A stretch of DNA of 64,000 nt, taken from the NCBI RefSeq assembly GCF_058153355.1, contig NZ_CM177019.1; one strand, given 5' to 3'. The translations under genes were made by a program, and so were the position numbers. The notes below the pieces were generated by a model. The model made no database searches. It worked only from the letters and a program-made list of their open reading frames with translations, and was not told where the DNA came from. Positions 5,966-26,990 of the stretch are shown in pieces (positions within the stretch are counted from its first letter, which is position 1; each line of letters opens with the position of its first letter).

Positions 5966-6180
5966 GCCGAGTCCTTTGTGCGAGGAAAAATATCAGTATG
6001 GCCTGGTGATGGGAAAAAGGGCAGAAAATGTTGATGGTTTGTTACTTCCCAATAAATCACATATTTATCATGGTGATATAAATATTTTCCTAATTGTTCT
6101 TATCTGACAGATATCTCACTTAAGGCTTTCTTATAAATCTGTAGGGTTTGCACCATGAGTGCGGTAGCTATGAGGTTTAT

Positions 6181-8493: not shown

Positions 8494-8576
8494 AGAGTGA
8501 CCGCCTGTAATTGGCGTGTTTTTGCATAAATGGAACAGGGTTTTGTAGTGAAAACATATTGCTAAGGAGGATTTAT

Positions 8577-9422
8577 ATGGGAGATGGAAAGGGTAGTACG
8601 AGCGGAAAAAGCCAGAGCGGTGAACAGTGTGTAGTTTTAAAGGAGGGAAAAATTACTAATGATTTTAAAATAATGATGAGAGAGGCTCTGAAGGCGCTGA
8701 TGGCTGTATTGAAGAAAAGAGTAGAAGATCTTGGTGATAAATGGGGAGAGGAACAAAATCAGGAGTTTATAAATATATTTGGTATTGATGGAAATACTTA
8801 TATTAAATTAGAGTTCCCTTTCGGGGGGCGTAAGGTTATGTTTCCAGAGAATATAAAGGCAAGGGATTATATGAGAAATGGCGTTACTCGCCTGTATGAG
8901 ATATGTGGGGAATTATCTGTGGAAGGTGATTGTGTAGACGTTACTATTCATGACCATTTCCTCAAACGTGATGCCAATTGTAATCTTGTTCTTAATGACA
9001 AAGGGGGTAATGAATATGTTGACAAAGACGTAATCAGGCCCAAAACCGGTAACTTTGTGAATTGTACAGATAATGACGCTTATGCTGCCAATGTAACTTA
9101 CGATCAGATTTTGGGTGTAAAACCTGGAGGCTTTAAAAGTTTGGTAAGTATAACTATAGGACAAAGATTTATAGATAGGCCACCCACTGGGAAAAACTCT
9201 AAGGCATCGACACTCTGCCATGAACTATCTCACTTTATAAGGTACGGGGATTCATTTAAGTTTGGAGGCATGTGGACGGAAGATATGCCGGTAGATATAG
9301 AGTATAATACAGGTGACGAATATATTGTTCATGCCACTAAATTAAAAAATGATAAAAAATCAGAACTATTTCAGAATGCATATAATATCGAACGTTATTT
9401 CGAGATTCATGTACCATATTGA
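8577..9422 (+). CDS. hypothetical protein with HExxH zinc-metallopeptidase-like motif; candidate VgrG1 cargo effector
   Basis: ATG at 8577 preceded by AAGGAGG RBS; 281 aa; motif CHELSHF (HExxH) near the C-terminus followed by acidic NTGDEY; strongly AT-rich next to GC-rich vgrG; directly downstream of vgrG1. Confidence 0.6.
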   Translation: MGDGKGSTSGKSQSGEQCVVLKEGKITNDFKIMMREALKALMAVLKKRVEDLGDKWGEEQNQEFINIFGIDGNTYIKLEFPFGGRKVMFPENIKARDYMRNGVTRLYEICGELSVEGDCVDVTIHDHFLKRDANCNLVLNDKGGNEYVDKDVIRPKTGNFVNCTDNDAYAANVTYDQILGVKPGGFKSLVSITIGQRFIDRPPTGKNSKASTLCHELSHFIRYGDSFKFGGMWTEDMPVDIEYNTGDEYIVHATKLKNDKKSELFQNAYNIERYFEIHVPY

Positions 9423-9446
9423 TGCTTTTATTTGACGGGGGAGTAT

Positions 9447-10355
9447 ATGCTTGCTAGATGGATTGTTTTTATTGTTTTTTTTGCGCATCCAATATTTGCT
9501 TATGATATCTCTGGCGATTATGCTGTTCATTACAGATATGGGAAGTTATATTGGAATGGAGTAATGGACAAACTTGGTGTCTATCCTCGTGTAGAGCCGA
9601 CAAGGCTTAATTATTATGATTATTATGATGATCTTTCAGCCTATGCTGTTTTTCAATATTATACTATCAGTAAAAATGAGAGTCAGTATAATCAAGATAA
9701 AAATAAAATATATCTTCATCTTTCCGTGCATCAGAAAGAAAATATTGTAGCAGCTGCAGTGGTTTTATCGAATAAAAGCCAGGGATCTTATTTTGTTCAT
9801 CGACTAACTCTTCCTCTTGACGTTAACGGCGGGCCTTACTCTTCCTTGTGTAGTGGTGTGTTTATACCGATAATGGATAACATTCAGTTGGATTTTTTAA
9901 AAAAAACAAAATGTAGCTTTGGTGAATGGAAAAATAAATCCGTTTGGCACGAGATATTAACAGGGAAAGAGCTATCCTTTGATGTCATATTGAACGATTA
10001 TTATGCCTTTTTACCGGGCATTCATCGTTATAATATAGGAACGGTAGAATTTACAATAGTTAATCAAGAGTGGTTTACAGAACAATGTATATATGAGTAT
10101 TTTCTTTCTATTATGAACTGGCGGGCAGAAAGTGAGTGTACTAATCCTATAGATAAAATAAGATATGGTATAGAGGAGTGGCGGGTTTGGAGAATTTGTG
10201 GACCTTATCGTGGGTCAGGTCTATTTCAGGATTTTTTAGCACGCTTTGGCTATCATGGCGGTAATGATAATATATTCAAAATAAGATCAAATCAGGTTGT
10301 GGTTACTATTGATGGGGATAGGGCATCTCCTCCTTATTCGTTGAGGAATTATTAA
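9447..10355 (+). CDS. hypothetical secreted protein (N-terminal signal peptide); candidate immunity or partner of the upstream HExxH protein
   Basis: ATG at 9447 with GGGGGAG RBS; N-terminus MLARWIVFIVFFAHPIFA is a typical Sec signal peptide; Tyr/Trp-rich, AT-rich; starts 25 nt after the stop of the previous gene. Confidence 0.55.
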   Translation: MLARWIVFIVFFAHPIFAYDISGDYAVHYRYGKLYWNGVMDKLGVYPRVEPTRLNYYDYYDDLSAYAVFQYYTISKNESQYNQDKNKIYLHLSVHQKENIVAAAVVLSNKSQGSYFVHRLTLPLDVNGGPYSSLCSGVFIPIMDNIQLDFLKKTKCSFGEWKNKSVWHEILTGKELSFDVILNDYYAFLPGIHRYNIGTVEFTIVNQEWFTEQCIYEYFLSIMNWRAESECTNPIDKIRYGIEEWRVWRICGPYRGSGLFQDFLARFGYHGGNDNIFKIRSNQVVVTIDGDRASPPYSLRNY

Positions 10356-10510
10356 TGTTAACTTATTGTCATGGCTACAATTCGTTGGTTTTCCTGTTGA
10401 GATGATAATATATATGAGAAAAACAGGCAATGAACCAGTGAGAGAATATCAGAAGATACGGTCAACATCGGTTAATTACTTTTTCCTGTAGCGATACCAG
10501 GGAGGTCATC

Positions 10511-12712
10511 ATGTCATTAAAAGGGCTGCGCTTTACGCTGACGGTGGACGGACTGGTGCCGGAGACGTTTGCGGTGGTGGATTTCCGCCTCACGCAGGCA
10601 TACTCATCGCCGTTCGTCCTGGATGTGGACGTTGCCAGCGACTCGTTCCGCCAGACGGCGGAGAAGCTGCTGGAGAAGGGGGCCGTACTGACCATCTGGC
10701 AGGGTGGCACGGCGCTGCGTTATGTGAGCGGTGTGGTGTCGGGGTTCGGCATGAAGGAGCACAACGGCTGGCAGATGCAGTACCACCTTCAGATACGTCC
10801 GCCCCTGTGGCGCAGCGGGCTGCGCCAGAACTACCGAATCTTCCAGCAGCAGGACATTCAGGCCATCTCCGCCACGCTGTTAAACGAGGACGGAGTGACG
10901 CAGTGGACGCCGCGCTTTTATGAGAGCCACCCGGCACGGGAGTTCTGCGTCCAGTACGGTGAAAGCGACATGGCGTTTCTGACCCGGCTGTGGGCGGGGG
11001 AAGGCATCTTCTTTTATGACAGATACGCTGACGACAGCCCGGAGCAGACGCTCACGCTGTGCGATGATGTGGCGGGCCTGCCGGTGTACGGGGAGATACC
11101 GTTTAACCCGAACACCCGTGAGGTGACGACGGCGTGCATCAGCCTGTTCCGCTACCAGGCGCAGGTGCGGCCCTCGCAGGTGCGTTCAAAAGACCACACG
11201 TTTAAGGTGCCGGACTGGCCGGGTATTTACATTGAGGATGCTGAAAACCTCAACGGGCAACTGAAGCAGTACAAAATCCTGGACTGGCCGGGGCGCTACA
11301 AGGACGAGCAGCATGGTCAGGACTTTACCCGCTACCGGCTGGAAGGGCTGCGTAACAGTGCTGAAACCGCCACAGGTATCAGTAACTCCCCGGCGCTGTG
11401 GCCGGGACGGCGGTTCACCTTGACGGGGCATCCGGTACAGGGAGCGAACCCGAACCGTGAGTGGCAGGTGGTGAGCAGCACGCTGACGGGGAGCCAGCCG
11501 CAGGCGCTGCACGGGAGTCACGGTGAAGGGACGACACTGAGCAATCAGTTTGAGGTGATACCGGCAGACAGGACGTGGCGTCACGCGCCGCTGCCGAAGC
11601 CGAAGGTGGACGGCCCGCAGAGTGCCATCGTGACCGGGCCGAAGGGTGAGGAGATATTCTGCGACGAGCATGGCCGGGTACGGGTGAAGTTTCACTGGGA
11701 CCGTTATCACGGGATGACGGAGGAGAGTTCGTGCTGGATACGGGTGTCGCAGGCATGGGCGGGACCGGGGTTCGGCAATCTGGCGATACCGCGTGTGGGT
11801 CAGGAAGTGATAGTGGACTTTCTGAACGGCGACCCGGACCAGCCCATTGTGACGGGGCGGACCTACCATGAAGATAACCGTTCACCGGGGGATTTACCGG
11901 GCACGCGGACGCAGATGACCATCCGCTCGAAGACCTATAAAGGAAGCGGCTTTAATGAACTGCGTTTCGAGGATGCGACGGACAGTGAGCAGGTGTATAT
12001 CCACGCGCAGAAGAACATGGACACGGAGGTGCTTAACGACCGGACGACGGACGTGAAGCATGACCATACGGAGACCATCGGTAACGACCAGAAGATAAGG
12101 GTGGTGAAGGGGCAGACGGTTGAGGTCGGCACCAGAAAAGAAGGGGGTCACGACCAGAGTATCACGGTGGCGAACGACCGGCGCATAACGGTACGTAATG
12201 ACCAGACGCTGAAGGTGACGAATGACCGGACGGTGAGCGTGAGTCACGATGACGGCCTGTATGTCAGAAACGACCGTAAAGTGACGGTGGAAGGGAAGCA
12301 GGAGCATAAGACGACGGGGAACCATATCAGCCTGGTGGAGGGAAAGCACAGTCTGGAGGTGAAGGGCGACCTGGCGAGGAAGATTACCGGTGCGCTGGGA
12401 ATGAAGGTCCGGAATGAAATCGTACTGGAGAGTGGCGGTAAAATCACCCTAAAGGTGGGTGGTTCGTTTGTGGTCATCCATTCAGGGGGCGTGGACATCG
12501 TCGGGCCGAAAATCAATCTCAATAGCGGCGGTAGTCCGGGAACGCCGGTGCCGACGCTACGACCGGCGGTTTTGAAAGCGCTGGCAGATTATGACAATGG
12601 CGGACCTGGAACTGAAGGGGCGGAGCCACCACGGAAAAGTGTACAGGAAGCCTTTGATCCTCCCCAGCAGGATAAGGTACCGCCACAACGGCCGGGAAGA
12701 TTCTCACGATAA
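10511..12712 (+). CDS. vgrG: T6SS spike protein VgrG (copy 2) with short Pro-rich C-terminal tail
   Basis: 733-aa ORF, N-terminus MSLKGLRFTLTVDGL...; central about 0.88 kb is nucleotide-identical to vgrG1; GGAGG RBS upstream. Confidence 0.92.
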   Translation: MSLKGLRFTLTVDGLVPETFAVVDFRLTQAYSSPFVLDVDVASDSFRQTAEKLLEKGAVLTIWQGGTALRYVSGVVSGFGMKEHNGWQMQYHLQIRPPLWRSGLRQNYRIFQQQDIQAISATLLNEDGVTQWTPRFYESHPAREFCVQYGESDMAFLTRLWAGEGIFFYDRYADDSPEQTLTLCDDVAGLPVYGEIPFNPNTREVTTACISLFRYQAQVRPSQVRSKDHTFKVPDWPGIYIEDAENLNGQLKQYKILDWPGRYKDEQHGQDFTRYRLEGLRNSAETATGISNSPALWPGRRFTLTGHPVQGANPNREWQVVSSTLTGSQPQALHGSHGEGTTLSNQFEVIPADRTWRHAPLPKPKVDGPQSAIVTGPKGEEIFCDEHGRVRVKFHWDRYHGMTEESSCWIRVSQAWAGPGFGNLAIPRVGQEVIVDFLNGDPDQPIVTGRTYHEDNRSPGDLPGTRTQMTIRSKTYKGSGFNELRFEDATDSEQVYIHAQKNMDTEVLNDRTTDVKHDHTETIGNDQKIRVVKGQTVEVGTRKEGGHDQSITVANDRRITVRNDQTLKVTNDRTVSVSHDDGLYVRNDRKVTVEGKQEHKTTGNHISLVEGKHSLEVKGDLARKITGALGMKVRNEIVLESGGKITLKVGGSFVVIHSGGVDIVGPKINLNSGGSPGTPVPTLRPAVLKALADYDNGGPGTEGAEPPRKSVQEAFDPPQQDKVPPQRPGRFSR

Positions 12713-12721
12713 GGACTGAAC

Positions 12722-15211
12722 ATGAAAATCAGCCATCCCATCAGGGATAAAGAAGGCAAAGAGTTTCGCTCACTGGATGAGATAATGCGGCTTATTGACA
12801 AAGAAGCGCACGGAACCTGGCTGCTGGGTGGAAACGGGCTGTGGCACGGCGGGATACATATCAGTGACGTGTCTAATCCGTTATCAGCCCTGAAACCGGA
12901 TACCGCCGCTACCGGAGAACCGGTTCCTCTTCAGTTTATGGCCGATGGCACCATTGCGGCGTACCGGATAAATAATGATTACCTGAAAGGCCCCTACAAA
13001 GGGCAGCAACTCCGTTACAGCAGCACATTTGTTCTGGTGAAATCGCAGTGCCAGCCAGACCCGCAAAAAAAAGAAAGCTGGCTGGAATTTTACTGTCTCT
13101 ATATGCATCTGGCCCCGGTGAACGATTATCCCGGCTCCCCCTGCTATAAAGTTAAAACCGGGCATGGTGGCATATTGCTGCACCGATACATCCCGGGAAA
13201 GAACGGCCTTCCCGAGGGGCAGGAAAGCGGAGATCATGCCACGTACTGGATACCCCCGAAAATCAGCGGAAACAGGACACTTAATGCGGGAGATCGGTTT
13301 GTGTCATCCCGGACCGGACGTTTTTACGTGACCAATAACGGCCAGCCGGTCCTGACGACATTCGGACTGGTTCGCCTGCTGGAAGGCAATAAACCGGGGA
13401 ATGAGCAGTACTGGGTGACCCTGGATCCGGATCTGATGGAGTCAGATGGCGAAATACAGATGCTGATGCCTGAGTGGATGCAGAAGGCGAAGGCAAAAGG
13501 CATTTTTGACTCGGTACAGACGGTCGACGAAACGGAAGAGTGGAAAGTCAGTGCCGGAACACCGGTCGGATTTATGGGATGCGAGGATTATCCTGGCGAG
13601 GGAAGCGGTGAGATTGAGCGCGAGTGGTTCGTCCATCTGGAGGTTCTGAGTACAGACCCGAATATGCCAAAGTTCTTATCCAACCCGGCAGGCGTTAAGG
13701 GAGAAAAACGGACTGTTCTGGCACCAAAAGGGATAATTTTATACACCCGGCAGGCCGTTCCGGGACAGGAGGTATTTACCGCAACCGCAGCCACGCTGGG
13801 TGCTCAGCGCGTTCTTCCGCGGGAAGCCACGACACCAGTCACGGATGAATCGCAGCAGTGGTGGTTTAATATCACCGGAACCGGCTGGCTGCCACAAAAG
13901 GATGTTGAAGAGGCCGGACAGTATGATTTACTGAAGCTGGGTTTTCAACCGCTGGAGGAGAACAGCAGCGGTGACATGACGTACAGCCCGTACGAAGGAT
14001 GGGTGCCGGAAGCGTTTGACTCAATAAGCCGTGCCGCAGAACAGGGAGATGAGTGGCTGTATGAGCAGGTACCGCCCTTTTATCGTGAGCTGATGGCGGG
14101 TATGGATCAGGACGGTGATGGAAAAGTGACGGAGGAAGAGATCAGACAGGCGCTGATCGTGCGTGAACCACTGGTGAGAAATGTGGTGAATCATCTGATA
14201 GTTAAACACCACAGCGAATGGTACGGAGGGCGCTCGACAGGGCGGTGGGAAGGATTTTATAAAGATCTGGATACAGAGGAAGTGGCATACTGTGAGAAGT
14301 GGCAGCTGGATCTGGAGTGGATGAGCGGGGTATCTCCGTTTAATAGTGATGATGCTGTGTGGCATTTTCATCCGGTTGTGTTTTTGGACGCTATTAATTC
14401 CAAATCTGTGTGTGCTTGCAACAGAGATATAACATTAGATGAATTAAAAAAAGTTGCTCCTGCAGTAAGTGAAGGTCTTCTCAAAAGGTACCTCTACGAT
14501 ATAAATGCAGGGTTTATTCGGTTTGGTATGACCACTTGTAGAGAAAAAGCCCATTTTCTTGCTCAAATTATTCACGAGAGCGGTTATTTTAGATATACCA
14601 AAGAAATTAATGGTGAATCAGCTTCATATAGTCCGTGGTATGGCCGAGGCTTAATACAAGTTACAGGCGAAAGTAATTACACCGCCTATGGGGAATATAT
14701 CAATGAGGACGTAACATCTTCAGATTCCGCAAGAGATAAACTCATATCCTCCCCACATTGCGTATTATCTGCGTTTTGGTATTTCAATATATTCAAAAGA
14801 ATAAATGAAGATGCTAAAAATGATGATTTTAATAAAATTACAGTAGTGATTAATGGAGGGTATAATCATTATGATGAACGGTTGTCGATATTTAATAAAT
14901 TGGTTACCTCACTTGCTGCCGAGCATTTAAATCAGAAAGAAATGAACGACGATTTCTTGTTTGATGATAGTGACGTATATGATAATAAAGTATATGCTTT
15001 GGGATGGGGGATATGGCATGATCCTGATAGCTCCCGAAGAGGGACGATCAAGAGTAACGAAGAAGCATTAAAAGGTTATAGAAGGGCGAAAGAATTAATT
15101 GACCTGCATCCGTTTCCTCAGGAAGGGCGTGAGGGTGATAGAAAAGTATATGGAATAGAAAAAAGGAATATATCCACATTTGTAGAGAGACGAATAACTG
15201 AACTGGAGTAA
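12722..15211 (+). CDS. modular T6SS effector candidate: unknown N-terminal domain, EF-hand, C-terminal GH19 (chitinase/lysozyme-like) peptidoglycan hydrolase domain
   Basis: 829-aa ORF 9 nt after the vgrG2 stop; canonical EF-hand loop DQDGDGKVTEEE; C-terminal motifs AHFLAQIIHESG and YGRGLIQVTGESNY match GH19-family catalytic signatures; the C-terminal third is AT-rich compared with the N-terminal part. Confidence 0.75.
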   Translation: MKISHPIRDKEGKEFRSLDEIMRLIDKEAHGTWLLGGNGLWHGGIHISDVSNPLSALKPDTAATGEPVPLQFMADGTIAAYRINNDYLKGPYKGQQLRYSSTFVLVKSQCQPDPQKKESWLEFYCLYMHLAPVNDYPGSPCYKVKTGHGGILLHRYIPGKNGLPEGQESGDHATYWIPPKISGNRTLNAGDRFVSSRTGRFYVTNNGQPVLTTFGLVRLLEGNKPGNEQYWVTLDPDLMESDGEIQMLMPEWMQKAKAKGIFDSVQTVDETEEWKVSAGTPVGFMGCEDYPGEGSGEIEREWFVHLEVLSTDPNMPKFLSNPAGVKGEKRTVLAPKGIILYTRQAVPGQEVFTATAATLGAQRVLPREATTPVTDESQQWWFNITGTGWLPQKDVEEAGQYDLLKLGFQPLEENSSGDMTYSPYEGWVPEAFDSISRAAEQGDEWLYEQVPPFYRELMAGMDQDGDGKVTEEEIRQALIVREPLVRNVVNHLIVKHHSEWYGGRSTGRWEGFYKDLDTEEVAYCEKWQLDLEWMSGVSPFNSDDAVWHFHPVVFLDAINSKSVCACNRDITLDELKKVAPAVSEGLLKRYLYDINAGFIRFGMTTCREKAHFLAQIIHESGYFRYTKEINGESASYSPWYGRGLIQVTGESNYTAYGEYINEDVTSSDSARDKLISSPHCVLSAFWYFNIFKRINEDAKNDDFNKITVVINGGYNHYDERLSIFNKLVTSLAAEHLNQKEMNDDFLFDDSDVYDNKVYALGWGIWHDPDSSRRGTIKSNEEALKGYRRAKELIDLHPFPQEGREGDRKVYGIEKRNISTFVERRITELE

Positions 15212-15216
15212 TTGAT

Positions 15217-15627
15217 ATGAAAGTTAATTTATTGGTTTTACTGTTTTGTTTGGTGCCTTGTTGTTTATTGGCTAAACAACAAACAACGGTAGGCTGTTTT
15301 AGCGCTGGGAAAACAAATTTAAAGTTTGTTGAAATATCGTCTGGCGATATTTTTTTAGGTTATGTGATTTATGAGAAATCCTCAAAATTTATACCTCTTG
15401 CGTTTATAAATAAATTAGAAGTGACTTTCGATGACAGGCCTTCTGAATTTTCTTATGCATGGAGCGAGGTTGTAAATGGAAAAATTAATGGGTTGTATGT
15501 TGTTTCCACACAAGGTGCAAGATTTAATTTGTTTCATTATAAATCAATAAGTGGGAAAACAACTGAGTTTGAAGAAAATATTGAGGCATATAATGATGAT
15601 GGTACTGATTGCAAATGGACTGGATGA
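15217..15627 (+). CDS. putative periplasmic immunity protein for the GH19-type effector
   Basis: 136-aa ORF starting 6 nt after the effector stop; N-terminal signal peptide MKVNLLVLLFCLVPCCLLA; AT-rich like the toxin domain. Confidence 0.6.
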   Translation: MKVNLLVLLFCLVPCCLLAKQQTTVGCFSAGKTNLKFVEISSGDIFLGYVIYEKSSKFIPLAFINKLEVTFDDRPSEFSYAWSEVVNGKINGLYVVSTQGARFNLFHYKSISGKTTEFEENIEAYNDDGTDCKWTG

Positions 15628-15789
15628 CCATTGTGCAGTTTTTTATGAAATCGATGCTGTGTTATTAAAATAATAATGCGACTAGGTTGAATTTGTTTAT
15701 TATTAATTTAAATGTTTTATGATTTTAAGTTAGACATGAATAACTGACTGGAAAATTATTTTTGAGGGATATCGTACAGGCAGGCAGGG

Positions 15790-17070
15790 AAAGATCACGT
15801 AACGCTGCTTTTTTGTACTATACAATTCGCATTTTATGTTTGAAAATTGAGATATTCCTCATTACCTGAAGCTGTTTTTTATTGCTTATACATGATCAAA
15901 TACTCCTTACATAATTAAGGAGAACAAAATGGTACTTAAAAAATTGATGGAACATATTTCTATTATCCCCGATTACAGACAAGCCTGGAAAGTGGAACAT
16001 AAATTATCGGATATTCTACTGTTGACTATTTGCGCCGTTATTTCGGGTGCAGAAGGCTGGGAAGATATAGAGGATTTTGGGGAAACACATCTCGATTTTT
16101 TGAAGCAATATGGTGATTTTGAAAATGGTATTCCTGTTCACGATACCATTGTCAGAGTTGTATCCTGTATCAGTCCTGCAAAATTTCACGAGTGCTTTAT
16201 TAACTGGATGCGTGACTGCCATTCTTCAGATGATAAAGGCGTCATTGCAATTGATGGAAAAACGCTCCGGCACTCTTATGACAAGAGTCGCCGCAGGGGA
16301 GCGATTCATGTCATTAGTGCGTTCTCAACAATGCACAGTCTGGTCATCGGACAGATCAAGACGGATGAGAAATCCAATGAGATTACAGCTATCCCAGAAC
16401 TTCTTAACATGCTGGATATTAAAGGAAAAATCATCACAACTGATGCGATGGGTTGCCAGAAAGATATTGCAGAGAAGATACAAAAACAGGGAGGTGATTA
16501 TTTATTCGCGGTAAAAGGAAACCAGGGGCGGCTAAATAAAGCCTTTGAGGAAAAATTTCCGCTGAAAGAATTAAATAATCCAGATCATGACAGTTAAGCG
16601 ATTAGTGAAAAGAGTCACGGCAGAGAAAAAATCCGTCTTCATATTGTTTGCGATGTCCCTGATGAACTTATTGATTTCACGTTTGAATGGAAAGGTCTGA
16701 AGAAATTATGCGTGGCAGTCTCCTTTCGGTTAATAATAGCAGAACAAAAGAAAGAGCCAGAAATGACGGTCAGATATTATATCAGTTCTGCTGATTTAAC
16801 CGCAGAGAAGTTCGCCACAGCAATCCGAAACCACTGGCACGTGGAGAATAAGCTGCACTGGCGTCTGGACGTGGTAATGAATGAAGACGACTGCAAAATA
16901 AGAAGAGGAAACGCCGCAGAATTATTTTCAGGGATACGGCACATCGCTATTAATATTTTAACGAATGATAAGGTATTCAAGGCAGGGTTAAGACGTAAGA
17001 TGCGAAAAGCAGCCATGGACAGAAACTATCTCGCGTCAGTCCTTGCGGGGAGCGGGCTTTCGTAATCTTG
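15790..17070 (+). mobile_element. H-repeat (H-rpt) element, ISAs1 family, nearly full length
   Basis: Encodes the H-repeat-associated transposase-like protein; its 5' end, including about 140 bp upstream of the ATG, recurs at 19865-20290 and in degenerate form at 21975-22635; element boundaries are approximate. Confidence 0.75.
15929..17065 (+). pseudogene. ISAs1-family (H-repeat-associated) transposase, interrupted by a single in-frame TAA
   Basis: ORFs 15929-16597 and 16712-17065 are in the same frame (669 and 114 nt offsets are multiples of 3) and separated only by TAA at 16598-16600; combined length about 378 codons, the size of intact H-rpt proteins. Confidence 0.75.
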
Positions 17071-17075
17071 CCCTG

Positions 17076-19492
17076 GAGGTGATACCGGCGGACAGGACGT
17101 GGCGTCACGCGCCCCTGCCGAAGCCGAAGGTGGACGGCCCGCAGAGTGCCATCGTGACCGGGCCGAAGGGCGAGGAGATATTCTGCGACGAGCATGGCCG
17201 GGTACGGGTGAAGTTTCACTGGGACCGTTATCACGGGATGACGGAGGAGAGTTCATGCTGGATACGGGCGTCGCAGGCATGGGCGGGACCGGGGTTCGGC
17301 AATCTGGCGATACCGCGTGTGGGTCAGGAAGTGATAGTGGACTTTCTGAACGGCGACCCGGACCAGCCCATTGTGACGGGGCGGACATACCATGAGGACA
17401 ACCGTTCACCGGGGGATTTACCGGGCACGCGGACGCAGATGACCATCCGCTCGAAGACCTATAAAGGAAGCGGCTTTAATGAACTGCGTTTCGAGGATGC
17501 GACGGACAGTGAGCAGGTGTATATCCACGCGCAGAAGAACATGGACACGGAGGTGCTTAACGACCGGACGACGGACGTGAAGCATGACCATACGGAGACC
17601 ATCGGTAACGACCAGAAGATAAGGGTGGTGAAGGGGCAGACGGTTGAGGTCGGCACCAGAAAAGAAGGGGGTCACGACCAGAGTATCACGGTGGCGAACG
17701 ACCGGCGCATAACGGTACGTAATGACCAGACGCTGAAGGTGACGAATGACCGGACGGTGAGCGTGAGTCACGATGACGGCCTGTATGTCAGAAACGACCG
17801 TAAAGTGACGGTGGAAGGGAAGCAGGAGCATAAGACGACGGGGAACCATATCAGTCTGGTGGAGGGAACGCACAGTCTGGAGGTGAAGGGCGACCTGGCG
17901 AGGAAGATTACCGGTGCGCTGGGAATGAAGGTCCGGGATGAAATCGTACTGGAGAGTGGTGGTAAAATCACCCTGAAGTGGGTGGCTCGTTTGTGGTCGT
18001 TCATTCTGGTGGTGTGGATATTGTCGGACCGAAAATAAATCTGAATTGCGGGCGCAGTCCGGGGACGCCGATAAATACACTACAACCGGCAGTTATGGAC
18101 GCTCTGGCTGACGAGCAGTATGACAGAGGGAATGCTGGCGGCGGGAATGACGGAGAGCCTAGTGATGAGGATGAATCAGAAGGTGGAGAAGAAGACAAGG
18201 ACGATTCAGATGAACTGGTAATTCCTGTATACGCAAAATCTTGTCTGAAGGAGAAAGGCTGCACTGATGCTGGTACGACCATGGAGCCATCGAAACATTT
18301 TGGTGATATGGCTCTATTTGCCCAGCCAGTGGAGGATGACTGTTGCGGCTATGGTACACACTATCATGACGATGAAGTGGAGCAACTTGCGCAGTCAGCA
18401 AAAAAAACCTCAGGAGCGAACTCACTGACGGGGGAAATGACAGTTGCGTCAGCGGGTGTTGCGGTTCCACTAGCGGCGGAACAGTCTGCGGGAGTTTTAA
18501 CTCGCGTATGGGGAACATTAGGGGCATGGGGTGGAGAAGGTTTTTTAAGTGTATCAAAAACGGTGCCAGCCCTTGGTGTCCTAGTATCAGCACTATATCC
18601 AATACCTGCCGGTGAAGGTAGTGATAAAGTTCCTGGACGGGATGAACAGTGGCTCGAAAATGAGCTACGTCGTAAAGCGCAATCTGGAGAGACGGCAGCT
18701 ACGCGGGCGCGCTTTCTCTTTCAGCGGAATACTGCTGGTGAATTGAGGACATACGGATACCACACACCCGCAGGTTCGGAACTTGAAGGTGTTCGGGTAG
18801 CATTGATGGAGTGGAATAAGGAATTTTCCCGTTATGAATTTTCACCTGTGTCTGATTCGGGACCAAAAATATTTTGGACGCCTGCAAAGCCAGAAGGTTC
18901 AGAGCAGCCCATACACACCGGAACTCCTGTCGAACCAGTTGATCTACCTGATATTTATGTTAATCCGATACCCGATGAAAAAACAGATATCACCACGCCG
19001 CCTTCTCCAATGCCGGAGGAGCGAAATTTTAATGACTGGATACTTGTCTTTCCTGACGGTGCGGAATTAACACCAATATATGTGTATCTGAAAACTGCAA
19101 GGGATGTAGCGGGAACAGTAACAGGTAAGGGGGAGGTGTTAGCAGGTACAGGAAGATGGCTGTCGCAGGCGGGGAAAAGCTTAGGAGTGCCAATTCCACA
19201 ACAGGTCGCAAATAAACTTCGGAGTAAGTCATTTAACAATTTTGATGAATTCATGGCAGCTTTCTGGACTGCTGTAGGTGAATGTCCAGAACTATTGAGC
19301 CAATTTAATAAAGCTAACCAAACGTTGATAAAGCGTGGACGCGCACCTTATACTATATCAAGACAAAGAGTTGGGGGGCGAGGTACATTTGAAATTCATC
19401 ATATTGACGAAATCCAATATGGGGGAGAAGTCTATGATATTGATAATCTTAGAGTAAACACACCTAAAAACCACATACGATTGCATAAATAA
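17076..19492 (+). pseudogene. 5'-truncated, frameshifted vgrG (copy 3) fused to colicin E9-like HNH DNase toxin domain
   Basis: vgrG homology begins abruptly at about 17076, right after the H-rpt end, so the N-terminal half is missing; a 1-nt deletion near 17977 (ctgaagtgggtgg here, ctaaaggtgggtgg in vgrG2) splits the reading frame; C-terminal domain ...GRGTFEIHHIDEIQYGGEVYDIDNLRVNTPKNHIRLHK matches the colicin E9/E7 DNase HNH motif. Confidence 0.8.
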
Positions 19493-19505
19493 AAAGGAGG
19501 TAGTA

Positions 19506-19778
19506 ATGGAGTTTAAAAATAATCTAGAAGATTATACGGAAGATGAATTTATCGAACTTCTAAATAATTTTTTTGAACCACCTGAGGAATTGCATGGCGA
19601 TAAGTTGTCGAAGTTTATTGATGATCTTGTAAGTCATTTTATTAGAATCACTCAGCACCCAGATGGTAGTGATTTGATATTCTATCCATCTGAAGATAGA
19701 GAAGATAGTCCCCAAGGGATTGTTGATGAGTTAAAACGATGGCGAGCATCGCAGGGGCTAGGATGCTTTAAAATATAA
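19506..19778 (+). CDS. colicin DNase-type immunity protein (Im9/Im7-like)
   Basis: 90-aa ORF 14 nt after the DNase stop with GGAGG RBS; MEFKNNLEDYTEDEFIELL...HPDGSDLIFYP...DSPQGIV...RWRASQG aligns with the Im9 family (DYTE.EF, HP.GSDLI.YP, DSP.GIV). Confidence 0.85.
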   Translation: MEFKNNLEDYTEDEFIELLNNFFEPPEELHGDKLSKFIDDLVSHFIRITQHPDGSDLIFYPSEDREDSPQGIVDELKRWRASQGLGCFKI

Positions 19779-19864
19779 TGAAAATAAATACTCATCATAT
19801 TTTATTAAAATGATTGGTGTTTTTGTTATTAACCTTAAACCACTTCCTGAGAAGGTGGTACAGG

Positions 19865-20295
19865 GAAAGATCACCAGAAGTACACTTTTTGTACTAAATA
19901 ATTCGCATTTTATGTTCAATAATTGAGATATTCCTCATTACCTGAGGCTGTTTTTTATTGCTTATACATGATCAAATACTCCTTACATAATTAAGGAGAA
20001 CAAAATGGAACTTAAAAAATTGATGGAACATATTTCTGTTATTCCTGATTACAGACAAGCCTGGAAAGTGGAACATAAATTGTCGGATATTCTACTTTTG
20101 ACTATTTGCTCCGTCATTTCTGGTACAGAAGGCTGGCAAGATATAGAGAATTTTGGGGAAACACATCTCGATTTTTTGAAGCGACATGGTGATTTTTGAA
20201 ATGGTATTCCTGTTCACATACCATTGCCAGAGTTGTATCCTGTATCAGCCCTGCAAAATTTCATGAGTGCTTTATTAAAAGGAAACCAGGGGCGG
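19865..20295 (+). mobile_element. H-repeat 5' fragment (includes truncated 64-codon transposase ORF 20005-20199)
   Basis: Near-identical to 15790-16210 of the full H-rpt; the ORF ends prematurely (GDF then stop); joined through a short internal H-rpt piece (GNQGRL) to effector-derived sequence. Confidence 0.75.
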
Positions 20296-21465
20296 CTTAA
20301 TATCACCGGAACCGGCTGGCTGCCACAAAAGGATGTTGAAGAGGCCGGACAGTATGATTTACTGAAGCTGGGTTTTCAACCGCTGGAGGAGAACAGCAGC
20401 GGTGACATGACGTACAGCCCGTACGAAGGATGGGTGCCGGAAGCGTTTGACTCAATAAGCCGTGCCGCAGAACAGGGAGATGAGTGGCTGTATGAGCAGG
20501 TACCGCCCTTTTATCGTGAGCTGATGGCGGGTATGGATCAGGACGGTGATGGAAAAGTGACGGAGGAAGAGATCAGACAGGCGCTGACCGTGCGTGAACC
20601 ACTGGTGAGAAATGTGGTGAATCGTCTGACAGTCAGACACCACAGCGAGTGGTACGGCGGTCGCTCGACGGGACGCTGGGAAGGGTTTTATAAAGATCTG
20701 GACACCGAGGAAGTGGCATACTGTGAAAAGTGGCAGCTGGATCTGGAGTGGATGAGCGGGGTGTCTCCGTTTAATAGTGATGATGCTGTGTGGCATTTTC
20801 ATCCGGTTGTGTTTTTGAATGCTATTAATAATAGCAATTACCCAAAAACTCCTGTGAATAATGAACTTATTCCATTGGAATTTTTACGATTTTATAACGG
20901 AGATACCATTGATGATGCAGACTATGAAAATGCTGCAAGGACACTACAATGCGAAGTGGCTGCAATTAAAGCTGTTGCAAAAACTGAAACTGGTAGTTCC
21001 GGTAGCTATTTTAAATTTGAACAAGAAGATGATTACGTCCCCTCAATTCTTTTTGAAAGACATCATTTCCATCGATATACGAATGGTGTGTATGATTCTC
21101 AACCTGATATTTCCAACAGCCGTTCTGGCGGTTATGGAACACGATCGGAGCAATATCAAAAATTACTTCGTGCATATGTTTTAGATAAGCAAGCTGCGCT
21201 TAAATCGGCATCGTGGGGTAAATTTCAGATATTGGCTTCAAATTACCAAGCTACCGGGTACTCTTCGCCCGAAGAGTTTATAATATCGATTTCAGAGTTA
21301 GAGAAAAACCATCTGGCGGCATTCATTAACTTCATAAAATCTAATCCTGTATTATTGCGTGCTATTAGAGATAAAGATTGGCTTAACTTTGCTCTATGTT
21401 ATAATGGGCAAAGTCAGCGAGGATATGATGACAGAATAAGGGCTAATTATGAGCAATATAGATAG
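20224..21465 (+). CDS. orphan, N-terminally truncated effector module: conserved EF-hand middle region plus alternative C-terminal N-acetylmuramidase (DUF3380-like) domain
   Basis: Residues from NITGTGWLPQKDVEEAG through HPVVFL are about 95% identical at nucleotide level to 13865-14395 of the 829-aa effector, then diverge into a C-terminus with ILFERHHFHRYT, SWGKFQILASNY and LCYNGQSQ motifs typical of the DUF3380 muramidase family; the first 20 codons derive from H-rpt sequence in another frame. Confidence 0.7.
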   Translation: MPELYPVSALQNFMSALLKGNQGRLNITGTGWLPQKDVEEAGQYDLLKLGFQPLEENSSGDMTYSPYEGWVPEAFDSISRAAEQGDEWLYEQVPPFYRELMAGMDQDGDGKVTEEEIRQALTVREPLVRNVVNRLTVRHHSEWYGGRSTGRWEGFYKDLDTEEVAYCEKWQLDLEWMSGVSPFNSDDAVWHFHPVVFLNAINNSNYPKTPVNNELIPLEFLRFYNGDTIDDADYENAARTLQCEVAAIKAVAKTETGSSGSYFKFEQEDDYVPSILFERHHFHRYTNGVYDSQPDISNSRSGGYGTRSEQYQKLLRAYVLDKQAALKSASWGKFQILASNYQATGYSSPEEFIISISELEKNHLAAFINFIKSNPVLLRAIRDKDWLNFALCYNGQSQRGYDDRIRANYEQYR

Positions 21466-21898
21466 AGCATTAATTTTTATTTTTTTATCTGGAATTCCCT
21501 GGACTCTACACGCAGGAAATAATTATTTTTTATGTAATACATCCAAAGGAACTTTGTCATTAACAAGTTTTGGTGAAACGTTGATTTATGAAATGAATAG
21601 TCAGCATGGGAATAAATTTCAATTCATTTCAGATGGACCAATGTATTCAGGATTTTTTTATAATCATTACTCCAGATTTCAAACGGATTACTTTAGCGTT
21701 AGTTTTATTCAAAGTGGATATAAGTACTCCGTGTTTAGCAATTACGACAACGGTAGTAACATGCGAGGGGTTAGTGTCATTGATATGAAAACAAAAAAAG
21801 AATACGTTTATAATTGCAAAGATTATAAAGTGGACAGGCTTTATAATCTGAAAAAAAAGCTTAAATGTGATATTAATAATGTACTAAGTTGTCAGTAA
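21449..21898 (+). CDS. putative periplasmic immunity protein for the orphan muramidase domain
   Basis: 149-aa ORF overlapping the toxin stop by 17 nt; N-terminal signal peptide (MSNIDRALIFIFLSGIPWTLHA); AT-rich. Confidence 0.55.
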   Translation: MSNIDRALIFIFLSGIPWTLHAGNNYFLCNTSKGTLSLTSFGETLIYEMNSQHGNKFQFISDGPMYSGFFYNHYSRFQTDYFSVSFIQSGYKYSVFSNYDNGSNMRGVSVIDMKTKKEYVYNCKDYKVDRLYNLKKKLKCDINNVLSCQ

Positions 21899-21904
21899 AT
21901 TGTA

Positions 21905-22640
21905 TCTTACAACGTTCGGGCGGTACGATTTACTGAAGCTGGCTTTTCATAGGCTGGAGGAAAACAGCAAGGGTAATAAAGGTAAAGACCATATAACGCC
22001 GATTTTTTGCACTAAACAATTAGCACTAAATGTCCAATAATCAAGATATCCCTTATTATTTAATAAGTGTTTTCATAGCTTATATATATTCAGACACTCC
22101 TTACATAAACAAGGAGAAAAAATGGAACTTAAAAAATTAATGGAGCATATTTCTACTGTCCCGATTACAGACAAGTCTGGAAAGTAGAGTATAAATTATC
22201 AGATATCCTAGTGCTGATTATTTTCGCCATCCTTTCCGGAGCTGAAGGATGGGAAGATATAGAGGATTCTGGTGAGACTCATCTCGATTTGTTGAAGCAA
22301 TATGGTGATTTTTAATATGGTATTCCTATTCACGATATCATTGCCAGAGTTGTGTCCTGTATCAGTCCTGGAAAATTTCACGAGTTCTTTATTAGCTGGA
22401 TGTGTGACTGTCATTCTTCAGATAATAAAACCATCATCGCAATAGATGGAAAAGCACTCCAGCACTTTTTTGATTAGCATCGTCGCAGAGGAACAATTCA
22501 TAATCATTGCGATCTCGACGATGTATAGTCTGATCCTGCGGCAGAACAAGACGGATAAAAAATCTAATGAGAGCACACTCATCAAGAACTTCTCAACCTA
22601 ATGAATATTAAAGAAAAATCATCGCAGCCAATGAAGTAAT
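21905..22640 (+). mobile_element. degenerate third module remnant: effector middle-region fragment plus decayed H-repeat 5' portion
   Basis: 21920-21975 resembles the effector YDLLKLGFQPLEENS coding sequence; 22124-22635 is a diverged H-rpt 5' part with several in-frame stops. Confidence 0.6.
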
Positions 22641-22697: not shown

Positions 22698-23834
22698 TCA
22701 ATGATCCAAATAAAGATAATGCATCCAACTGGTCATTCTTAGCAGCACTTTCCGCATCACCGAAACATGGCTGAAATGGTCGGAGTAAACCGCCACCTGG
22801 GCGTAGATACCGTCGGGTAAGGCATCAATATCAGCGTTAGGGTCCAGTTCGATGGTTCCCAGCACACCGTCCGTGCCGGGCACGACGGTTAATGATTGCA
22901 GTACCCCTTGCGCCTGATACGAACCACCAGGCACCACCGGCAAGATGCTGGTCAGTTTGCCGTGGAATACCTGCCCAGGTAGCGCGTTAAACACCACTTC
23001 CGCATCATCGCCGGGTTTCAGACGTAACAGCGAGTTCTGCCGAAATTGGGCGACAATTTGCCGTTTTTGCTCGGGGATGAAAACCATCACCGGACGTAGC
23101 GGCAAGGCAGCTGCGTATGTACCTGGGCGGATCAGTACCTGAGTAACGTAGCCATTGCTTGGTGCGCGAATGACAGTCTGCTCAAGGTTATATTTTGCTT
23201 CGGTAAGTTGCGCTCTTAAGCTCACAATCTGCGATTGCTCGCCGTTAACCATACTGTCGAGCTGACTCTGGATCTGCGCCTGCTCCGCCACCGAGCCTTT
23301 CACCAGCGCGTCCTGCGCGAGGAAGTTTTGCCGCGCATCGTCGATGTCACGTTCCGAGAACGGATTCACTGCCGCCTGGCTGCCTTTCAGGTAACGTTGA
23401 TAATTTTTAAACAAGCGGTCACGCTCCGCTGAAACCTGGGTGGTGTTGGCCTGCGCTTCAGTGAGCTGCGCGCGCAGCGTCTTTATATTATGCGTCGCCG
23501 TCATCAGGTCAGCCTGAAGCCTGTCAACTCGCACCTGGTAACGAACCGGGTCGAGTTTAAAAAGCACCTCGCCCTTTTGAATAAGCTGATTATTCTTGTC
23601 AGTGACTTCAGTAACAATTCCCGTCACCTGTGGCGTGATGGGGATCGCTATCACTGCCTTTTGCGCGGTAAAAGTGTAAGGGTGGTTGTAGTTCATCAAC
23701 AAAATCAAACCACTCACCAGAAACACGCCTCCCAGCGCCGCCGTCGCCAGCGTCCACTGATTTACCGGAATGCGGAAGATTTTAAAGACCGCCCACGCCA
23801 GCGCCACGTAAGTTAAAACAATCAATAGATCCAT
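22698..23834 (-). CDS. yibH: HlyD-family membrane fusion / inner membrane protein YibH
   Basis: 378-aa ORF with N-terminal TM helix, coiled-coil middle and beta-barrel C-terminus typical of HlyD/EmrA-like proteins. Confidence 0.85.
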
Positions 23835-24199: not shown

Positions 24200-24415
24200 A
24201 TCTGCCTCGGATTCACGTTTATCGGTGTTGTTTTTTGGCTGGCAGCCAGAAGGGAGTCAGGCTGATATTTTGACAATAATTCGGGTTCGCGATTCTCGCC
24301 ATAACACCAAAGAATAATTTTTAGAGGTGATGAGTTGCTTAGTTACATAACGATTTTATGACGAAGGCATAACATGCTGCAGATCACATCAGGTGAACGC
24401 CGTAAGAAAATATCT

Positions 24416-26649: not shown

Positions 26650-26990
<341 letters not shown>

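Follow-up and report, generated by a model that had tools for sequence, protein, structure and literature searches.

The element under study lies in a 64,000-nucleotide stretch of DNA (the window, to whose numbering all positions refer), within a T6SS cargo island which is set between yibF and yibH, at the rhsA hot spot of E. coli, and consists of decayed tandem units of the order vgrG, effector, immunity gene and H-rpt. All features of the island lie on the plus strand. Its left border, placed by alignment to strain 142, is at about 6149. The first spike gene, vgrG-A (6148-8493; 589 bits with the VgrG model TIGR03361), stands just past yibF and is followed by an M35-type metallopeptidase effector (8511-10355), which by comparison with strain N96 is split by an in-frame TGA at 9420-9422; in N96 the same effector is a single 594-aa CDS with TTA in place of the TGA. 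Next come a full-length vgrG-B (10511-12712, 733 aa; Pfam Phage_GPD, Phage_base_V and Gp5_trimer_C) and effector 1 (12722-15211, 829 aa), which combines a conserved N-terminal part (about 560 aa, including an EF-hand) with a C-terminus that weakly resembles GH19/chitinase, and whose N96 orthologue carries the RefSeq name 'chitinase'. Putative immunity gene 1 (15217-15627, 136 aa) is assigned by position only, family searches having given no match. Beyond it lies a full-length H-rpt (copy 1, 15785-17075) and then a vgrG fragment (vgrG', 17076-18123), which by alignment starts at the equivalent of vgrG-B position 11552 (codon 348), is 96% identical to vgrG-B over 1,037 nt and is frameshifted by a 1-nt deletion at about 17977. 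The S-type pyocin and colicin/pyocin DNase part that follows (17978-19492; Pfam Pyocin_S and Col-Pyo_DNase) belongs to the same formerly fused VgrG gene: adding back one nucleotide restores a single open frame, and intact 1,151-aa VgrG-PyocinS-DNase fusions occur at other loci. An intact colicin/pyocin immunity gene of 90 aa (19506-19778; PF01320, E 1.5e-32) and H-rpt copy 2 (19861-20278) lead to an orphan, 5'-truncated effector with an N-acetylmuramidase C-terminus (20287-21465; alignment and Pfam), in which 20287-20829 is 96% identical to 13856-14398 of effector 1 before the two diverge into muramidase and chitinase-like ends. This is the arrangement of an orphan array, a full-length effector followed by a 5'-truncated paralogue sharing its sequence up to the divergence of the toxin domains. 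The island closes with putative immunity gene 2 (21449-21898, 149 aa, intact), again assigned by position only and without a family match, a 53-nt effector fragment (21917-21969) which aligns at 85% to the equivalent of 13915-13967, H-rpt copy 3 (21980-22626), whose left end begins 10 nt past that fragment, and the core-genome right border yibH (22698-23834, minus strand; annotation and genome comparison).

Copy 1 is an ordinary broken specimen of the well-known E. coli insertion sequence H-rpt/ISEc1, of the ISAs1 family. The full-length element of 1,291 bp was delimited by homology limits, inverted repeats and flanks: in about 5,000 genomes, the homology to thousands of copies located elsewhere breaks off exactly at its ends, 15785 and 17075, and its terminal inverted repeats are imperfect (left CAGGGAAAGATCACG; right end ...CGTAATCTTGCCCTG, compared as CAGGGCAAGATTACG). 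Both size and repeats are those expected of the ISAs1 family (about 1.2-1.3 kb), and at the DNA level the copy is 98% identical to copies annotated ISEc1. The first-pass annotation had described the ORF at 15929-17065 as an H-rpt/ISAs1 transposase complete except for one nonsense codon, and this proved correct, as the ORF scored 410 bits, with its stop read as Tyr, against a cut-off of 70 for the ISAs1 family transposase model NCBIfam NF033564, matched Pfam DDE_Tnp_1_assoc and DDE_Tnp_1, and contained exactly one internal stop in its 378 codons on translation. That stop is a TAA at codon 223 (16595-16597); it had been placed 3 nt too far to the right, at 16598-16600, which is the next codon, GCG. 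The alignment with intact copies that the annotation proposed confirmed the nonsense codon, TAC (Tyr223) being present in 16/16 other full copies and in 27 partial or full copies of the fetched loci. It also set the element ends, and the junctions estimated at 15790, 17070, 19865, 20295 and about 21975 each lay within 5 nt of those we measured (15785, 17075, 19861, about 20294/20295 and 21980).

The catalytic residues D109 and D172, assigned by motif, precede the stop and E306 follows it, and the TAA is thus predicted to remove the third catalytic residue, a glutamate; because of this loss copy 1 should be unable to transpose, and with a stop between D172 and E306 it lacks the intact transposase of an autonomous element. 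The TAA is one of four private substitutions of copy 1 within 44 nt (16585, 16597, 16600 and 16628; clustering p ~0.01), and a survey of E. coli genomes with a 201-nt query found this patch to be unique among about 20,900 H-rpt copies. Since the TAA is unique and sits inside such a cluster, it may be a consensus error. The broader suspicion, that the TAA and its neighbouring substitutions are an artefact of the consensus or that the whole downstream module was misplaced by collapse of H-rpt/vgrG repeats, would fit the clustered patch, the absence of the exact 222-aa truncated product from a 15-billion-protein collection by exact look-up and the abundance of 92-98% identical repeats in the region. 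We nevertheless hold it to be very unlikely: the changes are substitutions and not homopolymer indels, RefSeq routinely flags H-rpt copies as damaged ('internal stop' or 'frameshifted'), and the joint at 17075/17076 connects non-homologous sequences, so that repeat collapse cannot produce it. A candidate RBS-sequestering hairpin at 15903-15922 of copy 1 folds, but with z = -1.35 it is not significant.

No target-site duplication surrounds copy 1, whose flanks (...ACAGGCAGG and GAGGTGATA...) differ. Perfect duplications of 9-10 bp were found at 4 of 13 other full H-rpt copies, and imperfectly at a fifth, and transposition of H-rpt is therefore real; the duplication missing at copy 1 was therefore lost via exchange of a flank or deletion, which leaves its family membership unaffected. 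We also considered a target shared with rhsB insertions, since BLAST alignments extended about 12 nt past the right repeat, but the flanks (GAGGTGATACC vs GCAGGTAACCG) show the extension to be due to chance.

The 5' segments repeated downstream are derived from H-rpt, as the first-pass annotation had supposed. Copy 2 comprises positions 1-419 of the element (H positions), 15785-16203 aligning with 19861-20278 at 91.6% identity over 419 nt (E 3e-171), and copy 3 comprises H positions 2-654, 15786-16438 aligning with 21980-22626 at 80.4% over 654 nt (E 3e-166), both similarities being far above chance. Besides an in-frame TGA (20197-20199) and the loss of one nucleotide, copy 2 has undergone two microhomology deletions: a 308-nt internal deletion at a TAA microhomology left a remnant of H positions 728-754 (20276-20302), and this remnant passes into effector sequence at about 20294/20295 (H position ~746), fusing H-rpt to the 5'-truncated muramidase effector. 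A translational fusion was considered as well; the reading frames of copy 2 and the orphan effector agree in the window bar one TGA, but in N96 they differ by 1 nt, and we regard the agreement as coincidence. Copy 3 is degenerate, is annotated in RefSeq as incomplete, frameshifted and containing an internal stop, and has a right end that is also found in Rhs-type loci; it is an old relic beside yibH and begins no module.

Comparison with related genomes showed that three of them, N96 and two MFDS strains, carry the same island minus a segment of 4,076 bp; they align to window positions 5998-16203 and resume at 19861 onward. The segment is bracketed by H-rpt 5' repeats and contains the 5'-truncated, frameshifted VgrG-pyocin DNase gene with its immunity gene, and the single H-rpt fragment of the three strains is copy-1-like over positions 1-406 and then has the deletion junction of copy 2. 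As the segment is flanked by directly oriented H-rpt sequences, and past H-rpt transposition is evident from target duplications elsewhere, it could be imagined to have moved as a composite transposon between its two H-rpt copies. This is highly improbable, since copy 2 has lost the right inverted repeat along with two thirds of the element, the unit has neither two functional ends nor a target duplication around it, and the deletion junction of copy 2 is older, being present without the module in the N96/MFDS strains and at the rhsC site. A single event between copies 1 and 2, whether deletion or insertion, was likewise rejected as the sole link to the N96 type, because it would force the crossover into the last 13 nt of homology; the N96 and window types are not interconvertible by one simple crossover, and the real history must therefore contain more steps than those modelled here.

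The module itself is rare, but was found elsewhere. In N96 the ybfA-ybgA interval, which is the rhsC hot spot, aligns contiguously to window 17076-20816 at 98.1%, and the VgrG-pyocin module is also present at yncG in strain ET350 (92%), so that it occurs at three Rhs hot spots in three strains with an H-rpt left end behind each. In 10/10 cases among the matches listed, the gene preceding that of the exact 90-aa immunity protein encodes an intact 1,151-aa VgrG-PyocinS-DNase and lies at the rhsC site, which suggests that the module normally resides at the rhsC hot spot. The junction of immunity gene, short spacer and H-rpt left end is constant across strains and all three hot spots, while the sequence to the right of H-rpt differs between them. 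Because the left junction is conserved while the right side varies, the H-rpt 5' fragments probably make better sense as trailing ends of upstream modules than as starts of downstream ones. The first-pass annotation had the 5' end heading each downstream module and thereby defining the boundaries; its recurrence at 19861 and 21980 and the presence of H-rpt sequence at every inter-module boundary hold, whereas the pieces probably trail upstream modules, copy 3 starts none, and neither the boundary of the orphan effector nor that of vgrG' was made by the 5' ends.

Copy 1 is a mosaic. Relative to the locus-resident type of H-rpt it has 1 vs 11 differences on the two sides of H position ~600, and relative to the rhsE/rhsC type 21 vs 2 (Fisher p = 2e-6 for two lineages around this position), and over its last 300 nt it matches ydcC-type copies without a difference (100%). 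On this comparison copy 1 is a recombinant, with its 5' part from the locus-resident lineage and its 3' part from the rhsC/rhsE hot-spot lineage. At 17075/17076 its right inverted repeat meets vgrG codon 348 without any intervening sequence. This junction occurred in none of 5,426 complete E. coli genomes, an exact 24-mer spanning it had no match in GTDB representative genomes or metagenome contigs, and no donor or sibling with H-rpt at vgrG codon 348 was found in any of these three collections. The joint could alternatively have arisen in situ, if an H-rpt behind immunity gene 1 attacked a neighbouring full-length vgrG-pyocin gene intramolecularly; such an IS-mediated adjacent deletion would remove the spacer and the first 347 vgrG codons, giving the codon-348 junction without inter-locus recombination through H-rpt. 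The precise joint between right repeat and internal vgrG sequence, the lack of a target duplication and the conserved left flank all agree with it, and H-rpt is known directly upstream of a full vgrG, at 59 nt in L014 (in ET350 a PAAR gene lies between). We consider it somewhat unlikely, however, as it leaves the two-lineage mosaic of copy 1 unexplained, still needs an earlier event to bring an rhsC-type module to the rhsA site, and has an undeleted intermediate which was seen at the rhsA locus in no relative.

We think it probable instead that H-rpt both provided portable homology and marked the end-point of deletions, and that inter-locus recombination placed the truncated vgrG-pyocin module at the rhsA site. 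In this proposed history, H-rpt would have reached a vgrG-pyocin gene by transposition into it or by a deletion ending there, and RecA-type recombination would afterwards have brought the truncated module to the rhsA locus, with the left crossover inside H-rpt at H positions ~270-726, an interval with few informative sites in which only positions 455 and 591 favour a crossover past 419, and the right crossover in the common H-rpt-fragment/orphan-effector sequence at window 20264-20588. Two microhomology deletions would have shortened copy 2 and also taken the 5' part of the next effector, leaving the muramidase orphan. Only rightward deletions are expected to survive, since leftward ones would cost the active upstream module its immunity gene, and the persistence of H-rpt 5' ends would follow from this. 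Having presumably lost transposition through the TAA, copy 1 would now work only as a homology patch. Copy 1 and the two older fragments are recombination and deletion scars between toxin-immunity modules. The suggestion of the first-pass annotation that H-rpt insertion or recombination generated the orphan array is upheld for at least one module, the 4,076-bp polymorphism, which is bounded by 5' repeats and has a recombinant copy 1 at its edge; it fails in that the orphan effector was cut by a microhomology deletion within H-rpt and vgrG' begins at a precise inverted-repeat end.

Across E. coli, the first 300 nt of H-rpt are matched at 24,384 places, the last 300 nt at 17,555. Much of this 5' excess could stem from a few old fixed relics and not from many events, and selection for upstream immunity genes would be its simple explanation. 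One may ask whether the 5' fragments are instead kept as useful co-oriented linkers, serving toxin-immunity modules as a 3' homology arm and perhaps a promoter. All H-rpt pieces in 28 fetched loci are co-oriented with the cargo genes, at three separate hot spots an H-rpt left end comes after the pyocin module, 5' ends exceed 3' ends species-wide, and the H-rpt leader contains a sigma-70-like site (copy 1, 15887-15915; copy 2, 19963-19991). Yet this site fits only 9/12 consensus positions, the region has no excess of promoter-like sites (21 vs 15.9 +/- 4.3 expected), the fragments are decaying (stops, frameshifts, 80-92% identity), and selection against losing upstream immunity genes predicts co-orientation and polarity equally well; we therefore regard maintenance as useful linkers as unlikely.

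The first-pass annotation also pointed out that H-rpt is here associated with a VgrG cargo array; this association is not special to the window. Intact transposase genes adjoin vgrG, PAAR, Rhs or T6SS genes in 9/10 sampled places, and the link of H-rpt to VgrG/Rhs islands is species-wide and already published: a recent report links ISAs1 members primarily to chromosomal hcp/vgrG/PAAR orphan islands, P = 1.2e-30 (ISME Commun 2026, PMC13098142). Our literature search pairing ISAs1 with H-repeat found nothing, and that pairing H-rpt with Rhs returned incidental mentions only. A more general role, in which T6SS cargo cassettes of E. coli would have H-rpt as their standard 3' linker, its left end lying 80-160 bp behind the immunity gene and always co-oriented, is a tentative idea that we rate as fairly unlikely. 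If it were true, H-rpt and the conserved 5' sequence of vgrG, effector or Rhs genes would form two homology arms making cassettes mobile among at least three hot spots, rhsA, rhsC and rhsE, and the leader of the kept 5' fragment might drive downstream orphan immunity genes. Alone, copy 1 carries little weight, being one strain's dead copy of an insertion sequence that has long been known; as a worked example, it gives junction-level support for H-rpt as portable homology that shuffles T6SS toxin-immunity modules between loci.

The closest known counterparts are the H-rpt (Hinc repeat)/ISEc1 copies of the K-12 Rhs elements, namely ydcC, yhhI, ybfD and others, of the ISAs1 family; the history of the element was traced in the papers of Hill and co-workers. 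Like these, the window copy is a 1,291-bp element with a 378-aa DDE transposase and equally imperfect inverted repeats, and lies co-oriented downstream of toxin-immunity genes at an Rhs hot spot, defective or truncated copies being common. It differs from them in its private stop at Tyr223, in its right inverted repeat fused to an internal vgrG site, and in its neighbours, which are VgrG cargo of non-Rhs type, an evolved VgrG-pyocin together with peptidoglycan hydrolase effectors, with no Rhs core. A further parallel is the case for which Xiang, Hobbs and Reeves in 1994 reportedly described H-rpt at the joint of the two halves of the O-antigen (rfb) cluster of Salmonella group D2 and read it as a recombination substrate; H-rpt there too reportedly lies between gene blocks of different origin, while locus and cargo differ.

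The layout of the island resembles the Rhs C-terminal displacement arrays of Jackson et al. 2009 (PMC2935791), in that 5'-truncated paralogues, here keeping 543 bp at 96%, stand behind a full-length effector. Of the genes beside the orphans, the pyocin immunity gene is intact, and so is putative immunity gene 2 (149 aa), for which there was no family match. By analogy with those arrays, the layout would allow toxin switching by recombination. Unlike them, the window has non-Rhs effectors, one of its orphans is a truncated VgrG fusion, and its genes are truncated where an IS ends or where a deletion lies inside one; H-rpt and transposases go unmentioned in that paper. Finally, the window is one instance of the ISAs1-enriched orphan T6SS islands (PMC13098142), and to the association given in that report it adds the anatomy of the junctions, namely a mosaic H-rpt copy, an inverted repeat fused to vgrG and microhomology deletions.

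The window is E. coli DNA, and its type VI secretion cargo island is bordered on the left by yibF (ending near 6149) and on the right by yibH (22698-23834, minus strand), with yibI and mtlA beyond. This interval is the rhsA hot spot of K-12, and in strain 142 it carries an Rhs element with a full H-rpt (the insertion sequence ISEc1, ISAs1 family). In the window it begins with vgrG-A (6148-8493), an M35-type effector split by a stop (8511-10355), vgrG-B (10511-12712), an 829-aa effector with an EF-hand in its conserved part and a weakly GH19-like C-terminus (12722-15211), and a 136-aa putative immunity ORF, immunity gene 1 (15217-15627). Full-length H-rpt copy 1 (15785-17075) follows, then a vgrG' fragment fused to an S-type pyocin/colicin DNase ORF (17076-19492), the pyocin immunity gene (PF01320; 19506-19778), H-rpt copy 2 (19861-20302), a 5'-truncated orphan effector with an N-acetylmuramidase C-terminus (20287-21465), a 149-aa ORF as putative immunity gene 2 (21449-21898), a 53-nt effector fragment (21917-21969) and H-rpt copy 3 (21980-22626). 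The M35-type effector has an in-frame TGA at 9420-9422 against TTA in the single 594-aa CDS of strain N96, so that the island's first cargo gene is probably also a pseudogene; a 6-nt deletion lies near 9482, beyond the TGA. Downstream of mtlA, a REP/BIME-like unit of ~135 bp (families D9 and D11, 96-98% identity) is tandemly duplicated at 26681-26945, where N96 apparently has one copy fewer, and 30915-35630 holds an intact, internally repetitive 1,571-aa ORF, 67-80% identical to a strain 142 gene listed in RefSeq as a frameshifted YadA-like protein.

Translation of 15929-17065 gave a 378-codon ORF with a single internal stop, which bears out the first-pass annotation of an H-rpt ORF complete apart from one nonsense codon; the TAA, placed there at 16598-16600, lies 3 nt further left, at codon 223 (16595-16597). 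Pfam DDE_Tnp_1_assoc and DDE_Tnp_1 were matched by the two halves of the ORF, and a translation with Tyr in place of the stop reached 410 bits against NF033564, the NCBIfam model for ISAs1 family transposases (cut-off 70 bits). Codon 223 is TAC in the intact H-rpt of strain 142 at the same chromosomal site, in 16/16 other full-length copies and in all 27 copies spanning this stretch in the fetched loci. By the DDE_Tnp_1 motif pattern, the predicted catalytic residues are D109, D172 and E306, and since the stop precedes E306, the 222-aa product would lack the catalytic glutamate. The nonsense change, a C-to-A at 16597, belongs to a group of four substitutions inside 44 nt that are private to copy 1 (16585, 16597, 16600 and 16628); the top match to 16500-16700 among ~20,900 places in E. 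coli genomes (98.0%) differs at exactly these four. Such clustering is improbable under random placement (p about 0.01), and the patch at 16585-16628 may stem from a mutation affecting several bases at once, from conversion by an unsampled copy or from an error in the local consensus.

A flanked H-rpt query matched ~25,800 places in 5,342 of the 5,426 complete E. coli genomes. Homology to other copies ends at 15785 and 17075, which gives an element of 1,291 bp with imperfect inverted repeats at its ends. Perfect 9-10-bp direct duplications surround 4 of 13 other full copies and an imperfect one surrounds a fifth; H-rpt has therefore transposed in the past. Around copy 1 no target duplication was found (left flank ...ACAGGCAGG, right flank GAGGTGATA...). 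In the inner left inverted repeat, at positions 14-25 of the element (H positions; 15798-15809 vs 19874-19885), block variants CGTAACGCTGC and CAGAAGTAC/TTCAC segregate among copies and may mark two ISEc1 sublineages. A 7-bp stem, CTCCTTA...TAAGGAG (15903-15922 and 19979-19998), able to pair the transposase Shine-Dalgarno, is kept in 3/3 copies, and the fold at 15903-15922 was not significant against shuffles (z = -1.35). At the rhsC site of strain N9 (L008, 4954-6243), one H-rpt is nested in another and bounded by a perfect 10-bp duplication of the target, CTTTTTGTAC; the ybfD-type copy that comes next lacks 313 internal nt (H positions 912-1224), and N96 (L005) has the same deletion. In many strains the distal end of the VgrG-pyocin island holds a group II intron reverse transcriptase/maturase gene, immediately upstream of the ybfD H-rpt (L005 and L019-L026, rhsC site).

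The proposed recurrence of the H-rpt 5' end downstream held on alignment: 19861-20278 corresponds to H positions 1-419 (91.6%, E 3e-171) and 21980-22626 to H positions 2-654 (80.4%, E 3e-166). Copy 2 has lost H positions 420-727 between TAA microhomologies, and a remnant of 19-27 nt, from H position 728 on, runs into effector sequence at about 20294/20295, the two merging within an imperfect 16-nt similarity (CAGGGGCGGCTAAATA vs CAGTGGTGGTTTAATA). Its left junction, 19860/19861, joins the pyocin-immunity spacer to the left inverted repeat and recurs at the rhsC site of N96 and, in a somewhat diverged form, in strain ET350. At 21969-21980 the effector fragment is followed after 10 nt by the left end of copy 3, an old relic, because its right end and yibH-side flank also occur in Rhs-type versions of the locus.

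Strains N96, MFDS1022581 and MFDS1019527 carry the same island, aligned to 5998-16203 and then on from 19861, and share junction 15784/15785 (immunity gene 1 spacer to left inverted repeat). They are without 4,076 bp of the window island, comprising the rest of copy 1, vgrG'-pyocin, its immunity gene, the spacer and one H-rpt 5' repeat; their single H-rpt fragment is copy-1-like to H position 406 and then has the exact copy 2 deletion junction. The segment 17076-20816 aligns without interruption to the N96 ybfA-ybgA locus (98.1%), where a full vgrG-pyocin, the immunity gene, the same truncated H-rpt as copy 2 and an orphan with another C-terminus stand in this order. In ET350 the pyocin module (92%) sits at the rhsE hot spot, at yncG, and a full H-rpt comes after it. 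The VgrG-pyocin module is rare, and occurs at three hot spots, each time with the same short spacer and then the H-rpt left end.

With substitutions private to the window copy removed, copy 1 differs from the locus-resident type (strain 142) once before H position ~600 and 11 times after it, and from the rhsE/rhsC-site type (L014, L008) 21 times before and twice after (Fisher's exact p = 2e-6); its final 300 nt match ydcC-annotated copies at 100%. Judged by this sequence pattern, copy 1 is a recombinant of the two types, with the lineage switch somewhere in H positions ~270-726. Over its whole length the window orphan belongs to the N96 yibH-locus type, which places the right crossover between 20264 and 20588. 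One crossover from copy 1 to copy 2 cannot interconvert the window and N96-type islands, since only the final 13 nt of homology could accommodate it. The simplest model would be a double crossover or gene conversion, with an N96-like island as recipient and, as donor, an rhsC-type locus whose vgrG-pyocin bore H-rpt at codon 348. At junction 17075/17076 the right inverted repeat meets internal vgrG precisely and without duplication, an arrangement found in 0/5,426 complete genomes and in none of the GTDB representative genomes or metagenome contigs; the main alternative is that this junction arose by an in-situ adjacent deletion by H-rpt.

The start of vgrG' corresponds to vgrG-B 11552, codon 348. 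The fragment carries a 1-nt deletion at about 17977 (CTGAA-GTGGG) that is absent from vgrG-A, vgrG-B, N96 and ET350, and restoring the base gives one open frame across the pyocin and DNase domains. For the identical 90-aa immunity protein, 10 matches were listed, all in the kdp-ybfA...ybgA-phr interval, the K-12 rhsC hot spot, and in most of them the gene upstream is an intact 1,151-aa VgrG-PyocinS-DNase. The similarity of vgrG' is in three parts, near-identical to vgrG-A, vgrG-B and rhsC-site vgrG equally at 17076-17886, vgrG-B-like only at 17887-17977 and rhsC-site-gene-like only from 17986, and the vgrG' fragment is thus itself mosaic. The deletion sits exactly at the switch from vgrG-B-like to rhsC-site-like sequence, as if it were the trace of imprecise recombination.

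In the fetched loci, every piece of H-rpt has the same orientation as the cargo genes, and among complete E. coli genomes the element's first 300 nt matched 24,384 places against 17,555 for the last 300 nt. Rightward deletions from H-rpt would cost the following vgrG or effector its 5' end and be tolerated, while leftward deletions would remove the immunity gene of an active upstream module and be selected against. This asymmetry would pair H-rpt 5' ends with 5'-truncated downstream genes, with no fragment function required; a few old fixed relics may lie behind part of the numerical 5' excess.

The repeats predict further rearrangements. Exchange between the 543-bp effector repeats at 13856-14398 and 20287-20829 (96%) would cost the island 6,431 bp and give the effector the muramidase C-terminus, paired with immunity gene 2; a crossover between vgrG-B and vgrG' right of 17977 would rebuild an in-frame VgrG-pyocin; and one between H-rpt copy 1 and copy 2 would eliminate the pyocin module.

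The presence of H-rpt beside Rhs elements is classical. Jackson et al. 2009 (PMC2935791) described VgrG genes upstream of Rhs genes and did not mention H-rpt. The first-pass annotation had regarded H-rpt with VgrG cargo as a notable link; this association is general and already published, since 9/10 sampled places of intact ISEc1 transposase adjoin vgrG, PAAR, Rhs or T6SS core genes, and a 2026 survey (PMC13098142) states that chromosomal ISAs1 elements are 'primarily linked to orphan islands' (P = 1.2e-30). Specific to the window are the TAA allele, the unique junction of inverted repeat and vgrG, and a recombination that can be traced.
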